A DNA stretch of 64,000 nucleotides from Escherichia phage GER2: the sequence record MG710528.1; one strand, given 5' to 3'. The position numbers are program-made. Position 1 is the stretch's first letter. Every line of letters starts with the position of its first letter. Positions 12,001 to 15,000 of this stretch are shown here, piece after piece.

Positions 12001-15000
12001 ATACACGGAGCTGGGGTGTCAAAATGGATAATACGGCACTCAGTCAGGACGGAGCTACAAATATTGCTGAAGTCAAAACGGGTGTTCAGGGTAAATTGTC
12101 AGATAACCTGAATGTCTGGGGCAATGTTGGTGTTCAGGCTGGCGATAAAGGGTACAGTGATGCCCAGGCAATGCTGGGTATTAAATATATATTCTAATCA
12201 CACAGTGGCAGGAGGGGACCTCCTGCCACCTCAGGGTTGTCATAATGAGTTCTGTAATGAAATTTTCTGTTGTTAATGCAGTAGTGCTGCTGTTGCTGAT
12301 TGTACTTACTGGTGTTTTTTATATGAAAAAGTCAAAAGAAATTGCAGTTGTTAATATCGATGCTATTTATAATCAGTCTGCCGCCGGAGACATGGTCAGA
12401 AAGCATCTGAATGAGGTTAAGAGTATTCTTGAAAAAGGCTATGAGGATGCGCAAAAAGCATTCGCAGATAACGCGAATAAAGAGGCGCTGCTTCTTGATG
12501 CCAGACAAAAACTGGAGCGACAATATGTTATTGAGGAAAATAGCGCAAAAATGGTGTTATCCCGTGCGATAGATAATGCCATAGGTACATGGAGAAAAGA
12601 CAATCCTAAAAATATTGCTGTATTGTCTTCAGGTGTTGTGCTTGCGCATAACGAGTCAGCTGATATCACCAAAGAAGTCATGGCTCTGGTTGAAAAAGAA
12701 AATCTGGTTTTTAATCAGTTACCCAAAGTGGAAGTGCACAATAAGAATGAAGAGAAACCAGAACAAAGTAAGTAATCACTAGATTCTGACGATTTCCAGA
12801 AGGGAGATTCAGCAGGCCAGCATCTGTAATCATTCAGATTTGCTGGCTTGCTGCTAAATATGGTTGCTAAGAAAAATAGCAGGCCAGTAATTTATTCAGA
12901 TTACTGAATATAATAATTTTTCAGGAACGGTTATGCTGAAGGTAGTATGTTTAATCGACACAATTATTTGCTGTGTCTAATATGAGGTGACATTTTTATG
13001 ATCACTGACCAGCAAGACTGACCCGTATTGATTAGCCTGATTATTGGCAACTTATTGGGGTAGTCATTTTGACATCGAATGGGGGAGGTTTCCAGTTAAG
13101 TTCACGAATGCATGATGATTTGCGTTCACATATCGAAGTACTGGTTGACTATACTAAGGATTTTAAGATAACTCACTGATTGTAAGTGGGTTATTGCGAG
13201 GGGGATGATAGATGGTGTCCCCTGCAGGAATCGAACCTGCAATTAGCCCTTAGGAGGGGCTCGTTATATCCATTTAACTAAGAGGACATTGTTGCGTATT
13301 GATTTTGGTTGTTCACCATATGACTGATAATACCGTCTTTATGGTTTTAAAATCAAGGTGTAAGTTCGTTTTTGTTCATGGTTGATTATCTTCTTTTGCG
13401 TTGAAAAGTGTTTTGTTCACTTGCTAATGCGTACATATTGAGTACAGAATACATTATAAACTTGTGTACAGGATATAAAGCATTGGCACTGAACGACACC
13501 AAACTACGAGGCCTCTACGGAAAACCCTACTCTGGCCCTGCTGAAATCACCGATGGTGACGGGTTAAGTGTGCGGATTACTCCAGCAGGAACTATCACGT
13601 TTCAGTACCGTTATCGCTGGAATGGTAAGCCAGTACGTCTTACTGTCGGGCGCTATCCGTCTACTTCACTGAAGGACGCGCGTGTTATCGTCGGTGAGAT
13701 GCGCGCATTGTACATGAAGGGAGTTAACCCTAAAAATTATTTTGCGCCCAGTGACGGCGAACTGACATTAAAAGAATGTCTGGATCAGTGGTGGGATAAG
13801 TATGTTACTGATCTGAAACCCAATACACAGACGCTTTACAGATCCGTCGTGTACAACACTATGTACACACAGTTTGAAGGCTCGCCAGTTGCCAGTATCC
13901 CAGTATCGGCATGGGCTCGTTTCTTTGACAAACAAGAAAGCCTCAACAAGAAAAAGGCTCGTGTTTTGTTGTTACAACTGCGTTCAGTTATTAACTGGTG
14001 TATCAGCCGCCAGTTAATCCCATCATGCGAATTACTCAAGCTTAGTGTTAAGAATATTGGGAAAAAACCAGATGTAGGGAGTCGTGTACTTACCTATACG
14101 GAACTGGCAAAAATTTGGCTGGCGCTGGAGAACTCAAAAGTATTTACTTCCAACAAGGTGTTACATCAATTGCTATTGCTATGGGGGGCCAGACTTTCTG
14201 AGCTACGTCTCGCGACAGCCAGTGAGTTCAACATGGAAGATCTGGTCTGGACAACCCCAAAAGAGCATTCAAAAATGGGGAATATTATCCGGCGTCCGGG
14301 TAATGACTCCAACTTATTGATAGTGTTTTATGTTCAGATAATGCCCGATGACTTTGTCATGCAGCTCCACCGATTTTGAGAACGACAGCGACTTCCGTCC
14401 CAGCCGTGCCAGGTGCTGCCTCAGATTCAGGTTATGCCGCTCAATTCGCTGCGTATATCGCTTGCTGATTACGTGCAGCTTTCCCTTCAGGCGGGATTCA
14501 TACAGCGGCCAGCCATCCGTCATCCATATCACCACGTCAAAGGGTGACAGCAGGCTCATAAGACGCCCCAGCGTCGCCATAGTGCGTTCACCGAATACGT
14601 GCGCAACAACCGTCTTCCGGAGACTGTCATACGCGTAAAACAGCCAGCGCTGGCGCGATTTAGCCCCGACATAGCCCCACTGTTCGTCCATTTCCGCGCA
14701 GACGATGACGTCACTGCCCGGCTGTATGCGCGAGGTTACCGACTGCGGCCTGAGTTTTTTAAGTGACGTAAAATCGTGTTGAGGCCAACGCCCATAATGC
14801 GGGCAGTTGCCCGGCATCCAACGCCATTCATGGCCATATCAATGATTTTCTGGTGCGTACCAGGTTGAGAAGCGGTGTAAGTGAACTGCAGTTGCCATGT
14901 TTTACGGCAGTGAGAGCAGAGATAGCGCTGATGTCCGGCGGTGCTTTTGCCGTTACGCACCACCCCGTCAGTAGCTGAACAGGAGGGACAGCTGATAGAA

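Follow-up and report, generated by a model that had tools for sequence, protein, structure and literature searches.

A Skp/OmpH-like gene directly downstream of the autotransporter gene upaE: a possible helper for giant autotransporters

The subject of this study is a small open reading frame (ORF) encoding a Skp/OmpH-like protein, which directly follows upaE, the gene of a giant autotransporter, in a stretch of 64,000 nucleotides (the window) from sequence record MG710528.1 (Escherichia phage GER2). The region concerned matches chromosomes of uropathogenic and B2-type E. coli and contains the locus ipuA-ipuS-ipuR-upaE. There, ipuR (3639..4259, plus strand) encodes a LuxR-type regulator with a GerE domain and is the first gene of a phase-variable transcription unit (PMC6083910). 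It is followed by upaE (4284..12197, plus strand), encoding a giant phase-variable autotransporter of the classical type (type Va) with ESPR, PATR, AC_1 and Autotransporter domains, about 270 kDa in mass, with an isoelectric point (pI) of 4.8, and named “phase-variable autotransporter adhesin UpaE” in RefSeq. Still on the plus strand follow a spacer of 47 nt (12198..12244) with a GC-rich intercistronic hairpin (12205..12229), the Skp-like gene itself (12245..12775; ATG start, 176 amino acids) and, 35 nt past its stop codon, a long hairpin (12810..12855), at whose position the transcription unit may end. The Skp-like ORF thus lies after upaE in the dsdC-argW island; RefSeq labels it either “OmpH family outer membrane protein” or “hypothetical protein”, and among 5426 E. 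coli genomes, 242-253 have it together with upaE.

The Skp-like gene and its protein family

An ORF finder returned the coordinates (12245-12775) and length of 176 residues that had been read from the sequence alone, on the plus strand and with an ATG start, and the translation has the hydrophobic N-terminal stretch followed by Skp-like motifs that had been claimed for it. An alternative start at Met5 was rejected, as homologue P0018 has an isoleucine at this position and MSSV is conserved. The ORF is taken to be a real gene under selection, because the ratio of nonsynonymous to synonymous substitution rates (dN/dS, method of Nei and Gojobori) comes to 0.13-0.38 in comparisons with homologues that are 63-77% identical and because the frame is intact nearly everywhere: among about 50 loci of the UpaE type, taken from genomes and from gut metagenomes, only two carry a defective copy, one in a frameshift-ridden assembly and one truncated on a 1-kb contig, while a third copy runs off its contig.

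The sequence-only reading had assigned the product to the Skp/OmpH proteins, and the best Pfam match is indeed PF03938 (OmpH; E=8e-6); the score of the single sequence, 26.6 bits, lies below the gathering cut-off of 32.4, which speaks against the assignment. That cut-off is an operational threshold, and the assignment rests on profile and fold evidence. When relatives are taken one by one, 120 of 125 match PF03938, with E-values down to 7.8e-15, and a profile of this 125-sequence family, compared to the PDB, matched OmpH/Skp chains only (9nhx, 9yju, 9yjt, 4kqt, 1sg2 and 1u2m, the last two being E. coli Skp) at E-values of 3e-6 to 6e-4.

The model predicted by AlphaFold2 with a deep alignment (as a monomer; predicted local distance difference test score, pLDDT, 92.9) points to the same family. 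It consists of an N-terminal helix (residues 8-25), a β-strand (32-36), a helical hairpin (46-72 and 79-119), a second strand (123-128) and a further helix (142-150); the predicted fold is hence that of Skp, with a small β-sheet body split by a two-helix hairpin, the “tentacle”, and then a C-terminal helix, so that both checks named with the sequence-only reading, for the OmpH family and for the Skp architecture, came out positive. The Skp core comprises residues 32-151 (12338..12697, plus strand) from the first strand through the tentacle and second strand to the C-terminal helix. It is followed by a motif typical of the subfamily (residues 153-164, NLVFNQLPKVEV; 12701..12736, plus strand) with the consensus [FWY]xx[LMI]Px[VI], which is present in 106 of the 125 family members, with F156, L159, P160 and V162 conserved, and which the model positions reliably (pLDDT 98 over residues 151-160 and 86 over 161-170).

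The protein is not an orthologue of Skp (HlpA/OmpH; PDB 1sg2, 1u2m), the housekeeping periplasmic holdase of E. coli: identity to it is about 16-20%, the NCBIfam equivalog model NF008047 scores 17.4 bits where its cut-off is 237, and the gene lies outside the bamA-skp-lpxD context, directly after a specific client gene and on mobile or island DNA. In alignments with classical OmpH proteins it falls short of them by about 20 residues in the tentacle region. Unlike E. coli Skp it has the additional C-terminal LPxV motif, and its N-terminus resembles a membrane anchor and not a cleaved signal peptide. The pI of the protein is 6.4 (5.4-8.0 within the subfamily, i.e., near neutral), whereas that of Skp is about 9.5.

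When 1.84 billion representative sequences were searched exhaustively with a profile, 215 relatives were returned at E<1e-3, only six of them below 1e-30; a word-index search with the single protein found close relatives from Escherichia and Salmonella only, and nearly everything that metagenome and viral scans returned was an E. coli-type copy. No tblastn match to the protein was present in the phage collection, and PHROGs gave only a weak match to a group of unknown function. The nearest relatives from outside the enterobacteria carry the names Desulfovibrio and Pyramidobacter. Taken as a whole, the sequence-based comparisons confirm the protein as a divergent member of the Skp/OmpH superfamily, and it represents a paralogous lineage that was probably acquired horizontally.

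A recurring pair and its intercistronic hairpin

The giant autotransporter gene which had been placed upstream of the Skp-like gene is present and on the same strand; in the window it is, however, interrupted by a TAG codon and therefore a pseudogene (see below). The further idea that a chaperone is paired here with an autotransporter has gained support from conserved synteny. In eight loci (those of E. coli, Salmonella enterica diarizonae, an IncY plasmid, L008, Yersinia ruckeri, L060, L061 and Rosenbergiella), which do not amount to a systematic cross-species census, an autotransporter gene lies directly 5′ of the Skp-like gene, on the same strand and at a distance of 44-64 nt.

In S. enterica diarizonae the autotransporter has 2632 residues, invertase and LuxR genes lie upstream of it, and the Skp-like protein, encoded 47 nt downstream, is 63% identical to the one of the window. 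P1/P7-like IncY phage-plasmids of E. coli and Escherichia sp. have PapI/PapB-type regulators in place of the ipu switch and encode an autotransporter of 2641 residues, again 47 nt away from a Skp-like gene (77-80% identity). L008, a plasmid contig bearing a relaxase gene, encodes an autotransporter of at least 1894 residues and, after 57 nt, a Skp-like protein of 42% identity. On the Y. ruckeri plasmid p17Y0159.2 an AIDA-type autotransporter, its barrel 24% identical to that of UpaE, is separated by 64 nt from a Skp-like gene whose product is 30% identical. Among the metagenomic loci, L060 combines an autotransporter of 2244 residues (ESPR, AC_1 and barrel) with the Skp-like protein P0049 at a distance of 48 nt, and in L061 a barrel at the contig start precedes P0075 by 47 nt. 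Lastly, Rosenbergiella sp. YN46 encodes a BigA-like autotransporter of 2034 residues, ending in ...NYGIAF, 44 nt ahead of the gene for P0114. The low identity of both partners in Y. ruckeri indicates that the pairing is old or has arisen recurrently and is not the property of a single recent island. A genome-contig profile scan with an alignment of the close clade confirmed no locus, and a scan based on P0114 recovered only its own genome, that of Rosenbergiella.

Within the UpaE group the putative helper diverges faster than the adhesin, the identities of barrel and Skp-like protein being 94 and 77%, 91 and 63%, and 72 and 42%, respectively. The module of L008 (L008:3-6287) is a mosaic in which the passenger is 90% identical to that of UpaE, the barrel 72% and the Skp-like protein 42%; these values imply that recombination had a breakpoint within the autotransporter gene and that the barrel was inherited jointly with the helper. 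The IncY P1/P7-like phage-plasmids (L005, L011, L056-L059) carry the module under FaeA/PapI- and PapB-type regulators, with a LuxR-type gene after it, and since their copies stand under other regulators, the two genes have moved as a cassette between phase-variation systems. One strain of Y. ruckeri has the module in duplicate, on p17Y0159.2 (L012) and p17Y0159.1 (L013), each followed by a SapC-family gene. The two copies have different lesions. The annotated end of the autotransporter in L012 runs past the real stop, after ...GIKYRF, in another frame, and in L013 the Skp-like gene is frameshifted; L013 had been considered an independent case, linked to a serine protease autotransporter of the Enterobacteriaceae, and was rejected as a frameshifted duplicate of the L012 module. 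The recurring pair suggests an undescribed helper for the export of very large autotransporters.

The Skp-like gene follows the autotransporter frame directly, as had been read, but the gap is one of 47 nt (12198-12244, the autotransporter frame ending at 12197) and not of 48 bp; likewise, the hairpin in it lacks a T-run, as had been noted, but spans 12205-12229 rather than about 12207..12227. It reads GTGGCAGGAGG-GGA-CCTCCTGCCAC, that is, a stem of 11 bp, perfectly paired, and a loop of 3 nt, and is followed by CTCAGGG where a T-run would stand; a weak Shine-Dalgarno (SD)-like AGGG is found at 12233-12236. The minimum free energy of the spacer is -21.9 kcal/mol, or -24.3 with flanks. Neither a terminator (by the terminator scan) nor a promoter-like site was found within the spacer. 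Two classes of element were rejected for it: an intrinsic terminator, for want of a T-run and of a call by the scan, and a repeated palindrome of the repetitive extragenic palindromic type, as the window contains the hairpin sequence only once (with zero occurrences expected by chance).

The spacing of 47 nt is constant in almost all of the approximately 50 UpaE-type loci checked, and a GC-rich stem-loop of 8-11 bp lies a few nucleotides past the autotransporter stop in eight out of eight paired loci, with the SD-like sequence and the start codon coming after it. The stems are GUGGCAGGAGG in the window, GUGUGGUAGGG in L008, GAGGGGGCCCG in Y. ruckeri, CCUUCCC in L060, UCGGGGCGGU in L061 and AUCGGGGAGG in Rosenbergiella; as those of distant loci are unrelated to each other, it is the structure and not the sequence that is conserved. 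Only the Y. ruckeri version is followed by a T-run. Presumably, the hairpin lends stability to the long message of the autotransporter gene at its 3′ end, or it terminates transcription in part, with read-through into the helper gene.

A second structured region lies beyond the Skp-like gene. The segment 12770-12900 folds with -45.9 kcal/mol (z = -5.1; none of 200 shuffled sequences was as stable), and the unusual degree of structure extends over 12785-12900, where the motif AGCAGGCCAG occurs at about 12811 and again at about 12879. The hairpin within it (about 12810-12855) has no T-run and was not called a terminator by the scan, and Rfam matched neither this region nor the spacer hairpin, returning only the tRNA. 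The region may be the 3′ end of the transcript or a processing site.

Membrane tethering and a possible role in export

Codons 7-27 (12263..12325, plus strand; FSVVNAVVLLLLIVLTGVFYM) specify a 21-residue segment devoid of charge, followed by KKSKE, which is predicted to be an uncleaved signal anchor, i.e., a transmembrane helix. In the E. coli/Salmonella clade the proteins start with MSSVMKFSVVNAVVLLLLIVLTGVFYMKKSKE; the uncharged run of 21-22 residues contains no cysteine, lipobox or canonical AxA site, Asn11, Tyr26 and Met27 are invariant across the close clade, and only about five residues separate the segment from the first β-strand. Other homologues carry signal peptides or lipoboxes. In Enterobacterales an aspartate at position +2 keeps lipoproteins in the inner membrane, as it allows them to avoid the Lol pathway. 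Four distant homologues that are linked to autotransporters, those of Y. ruckeri, Rosenbergiella and two metagenomic relatives, have precisely such a lipobox followed by aspartate (LSGC-D, LAGC-D, LTGC-D, LSGC-D), and family-wide 23 of 63 lipobox members have aspartate at this position. Two different anchors would thus lead to the same place, which argues that the trait under selection is attachment to the inner membrane on its periplasmic side; the protein of the E. coli clade is, judged by its sequence, probably anchored there.

Alternatively, the segment might serve as a cleavable Sec signal (cut, for example, after LTG23), and the protein would then be a soluble periplasmic paralogue of Skp, a holdase without a tether that acts on UpaE or more generally. 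From the sequence, a cut after Gly23 is conceivable and would weigh against an anchor, as G23 at -1 and L21 at -3 fit signal peptidase I and as ordinary cleavable signal peptides with a terminal AxA occur in many of the distant family members; nor do the flanking charges help, being balanced (K6 on the N-terminal side, KKSKE on the C-terminal side) and thus indecisive for orientation. Still, we regard a soluble protein as unlikely, since the 21-22 uncharged residues lack a polar c-region, close homologues have phenylalanine at -3 (FTG, FIG, FIS), the conserved Asn11, Y26 and M27 lie in or beside the segment, and the lipid anchor with Asp at +2 in the autotransporter-linked relatives suggests selection for tethering.

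Known systems offer partial parallels to an anchored protein of this kind. PpiD and YfgM each consist of an N-terminal signal anchor and a periplasmic chaperone domain and are located at SecYEG, where they receive Sec-exported proteins; they resemble the Skp-like protein in its proposed position and role, while their folds are unrelated and they are housekeeping proteins not linked to a client. Another parallel is SadB of the sadBA operon of Salmonella and E. coli, a trimeric inner-membrane lipoprotein whose gene lies 44 bp from sadA and which enhances display of the adhesin without being essential for it (PMC3953254). As in the locus described here, a small accessory gene stands beside that of an autotransporter adhesin, at a similar distance (44 bp versus 47 nt), and the retention in the inner membrane by Asp at +2, facing the periplasm, that is predicted for the Yersinia and Rosenbergiella homologues was verified experimentally for SadB (PMC3953254). 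On the other hand, SadB has a different fold (a coiled coil with a MATH-like domain), is encoded upstream and not downstream of its adhesin, and serves a trimeric autotransporter of type Vc, SadA, whereas the partner here is monomeric and of type Va.

A third comparison is with SkpA, a part of the extended translocon of type 9 secretion in Flavobacterium (8gl8), where it sits on the SprA translocon. It belongs to another phylum and secretion system, is 12% identical and is not encoded beside its substrates, so that only the fold and the dedication to one pathway are shared. As 8gl8 shows a Skp homologue as a fixed part of a secretion machine, the protein might have the Skp fold without being a holdase, and act as a structural or regulatory accessory of secretion, e.g., in docking the autotransporter at a translocon, in timing passenger release or in sensing secretion load. 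The additional conserved C-terminal motif and the near-neutral pI would agree with this; but the autotransporter is the sole partner encoded nearby, and no sequence feature separates such an accessory from a holdase, for which reasons we consider it very improbable.

The picture we hold to be rather probable is that of a co-transcribed, inner-membrane-tethered Skp-like holdase which assists the export of the giant autotransporter. The invertible ipuS promoter would drive the Skp-like gene together with ipuR and upaE, transcription continuing through the conserved hairpin, which, by stabilising or partly terminating the upaE message, would probably set the ratio of the two products. The N-terminal hydrophobic segment would export the protein, which would remain in the inner membrane facing the periplasm, held by a transmembrane helix in E. 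coli and Salmonella and by a lipid at the Asp+2 lipobox in Yersinia, Rosenbergiella and two metagenomic relatives. It may form a trimeric “jellyfish” like Skp, its helical tentacles, as predicted by the fold, reaching into the periplasm. Placed near the Sec translocon, it could capture the unfolded autotransporter of 200-270 kDa, which bears the extended signal peptide ESPR, as it emerges and keep it competent for export until the β-barrel assembly machinery (BAM) and TAM (translocation and assembly module) engage the C-terminal barrel. The efficiency or the quality of surface display would be raised thereby, and general chaperones (Skp, SurA, DegP) could substitute. The broader proposition, that a dedicated family of tethered Skp-like trimers acts as holdase near Sec for giant classical autotransporters, is advanced tentatively, as possible but falling somewhat short of probable.

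Besides the sub-threshold Pfam score and the ambiguities of the N-terminus, several observations weigh against this picture. In E. coli K-12, where the locus is absent, UpaE cloned alone was located at the surface and conferred biofilm formation and binding of extracellular matrix (PMC6083910); the reverse primer of the pUpaE clone is the reverse complement of 12178-12197 in the window and ends exactly at the upaE stop codon. The helper is accordingly dispensable, at least under plasmid expression, and can be at most an enhancer like SadB, with any effect on display being quantitative and not absolute. The mBio study of the locus also describes ipuR-upaE as a two-gene operon and mentions neither Skp nor OmpH nor a chaperone (PMC6083910). 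Further, the Skp-like ORF is intact in eight out of eight loci in which the autotransporter is disrupted, which could mean that it has an independent function or only that the disruptions are recent, and no autotransporter is adjacent to the relatives in L009 (of the Synergistetes/Desulfovibrio type), L065 and L007 (at a contig end).

Part of this evidence would suit a general chaperone for outer-membrane proteins which travels with the island, has no specificity for its neighbour and, for example, buffers envelope stress: the frame persists beside broken autotransporters, UpaE does not need it in K-12, and relatives on contigs of the Desulfovibrio/Pyramidobacter type and in L065 are not located beside autotransporters. 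We nevertheless deem such a chaperone quite improbable, because the synteny with giant autotransporters is tight in eight loci and four regulatory or replicon contexts, down to 30% identity, because spacing and hairpin are conserved, and because the gene co-occurs with upaE in the 242-253 E. coli genomes mentioned above.

State of the locus and meaning of the pairing

In the window the system appears to be doubly silent. An in-frame TAG at 9537-9539 interrupts upaE, owing to a single C-to-T change (CAG to TAG) in codon 1752 of 2637; the codon is CAG in Nissle 1917, SC516 and strain 1105, and no complete E. coli genome of the collection matched the 501-bp segment 9300-9800 at 100%. What the window carries is therefore a pseudogene of 1751 + 885 codons instead of an intact frame for 2637 amino acids, and the nonsense mutation removes the autochaperone and β-barrel domains. 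In other strains (L001, L004, L011, L041, L048, L049, L051) upaE is disrupted at other positions; the differing positions suggest that the UpaE adhesin has been inactivated recurrently. The invertible promoter element ipuS (3280..3553) is bounded by 7-bp inverted repeats 260 nt apart (CAAAATG at 3280-3286 and CATTTTG at 3547-3553). Between a PacI site at 3518 and the point where the reverse assay primer ends, 3710, there are about 186-188 bp, and the fragment published for the OFF phase of ipuS is 186 bp (PMC6083910); from this agreement the element is assigned the OFF orientation. With ipuS OFF and upaE carrying a nonsense codon, activity of the module in this strain is unlikely.

As to the surroundings, dsdC (30-983) comes first in the order of genes, followed by ipuB on the minus strand and by ipuA (2691-3320), whose product IpuA is full-length at 209 residues; downstream of the Skp-like gene lies argW, encoding tRNA-Arg(CCU) (13213-13287, minus strand). 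The segment 11900-13000 is 100% identical to that of ABU 83972, 95-3322 and others and is carried by 253 of 5426 complete genomes. Beyond argW, an ORF at 13408-14379 has P4-type integrase arm-binding and SAM-like domains and gave no match to the catalytic domain. In strains 1105, Nissle and SC516 yfdC directly adjoins the tRNA gene, so that the window has an extra integrated element, or the remnant of one, at argW.

Part of what is reported here is already known, namely the annotation as “OmpH family” and the fold and likely activity of that family. A Skp-like gene linked to classical autotransporters is not described in the searchable literature, from whose coverage most subscription journals are absent, and the same applies to the anchoring of this lineage in the inner membrane and to the conserved intercistronic hairpin. 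Should the gene have no specific role, the finding shrinks to that of a divergent Skp paralogue already annotated as such.

Classical autotransporters are the textbook case of self-sufficient secretion, relying on general chaperones and on BAM and TAM. A Skp paralogue that is anchored in the membrane, linked to its client and found again and again beside the largest autotransporters would raise the question of how an unfolded chain of 270 kDa survives the periplasm. If the interpretation is correct, part of the “auto”-transport of type Va would be the work of two genes, and the conserved hairpin between them would fix the proportion of adhesin to helper; technologies of surface display based on autotransporters would gain a handle for better display of very large passengers. 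In uropathogenic E. coli and in Nissle 1917, the phase-variable ipuR-upaE unit would then comprise three genes.

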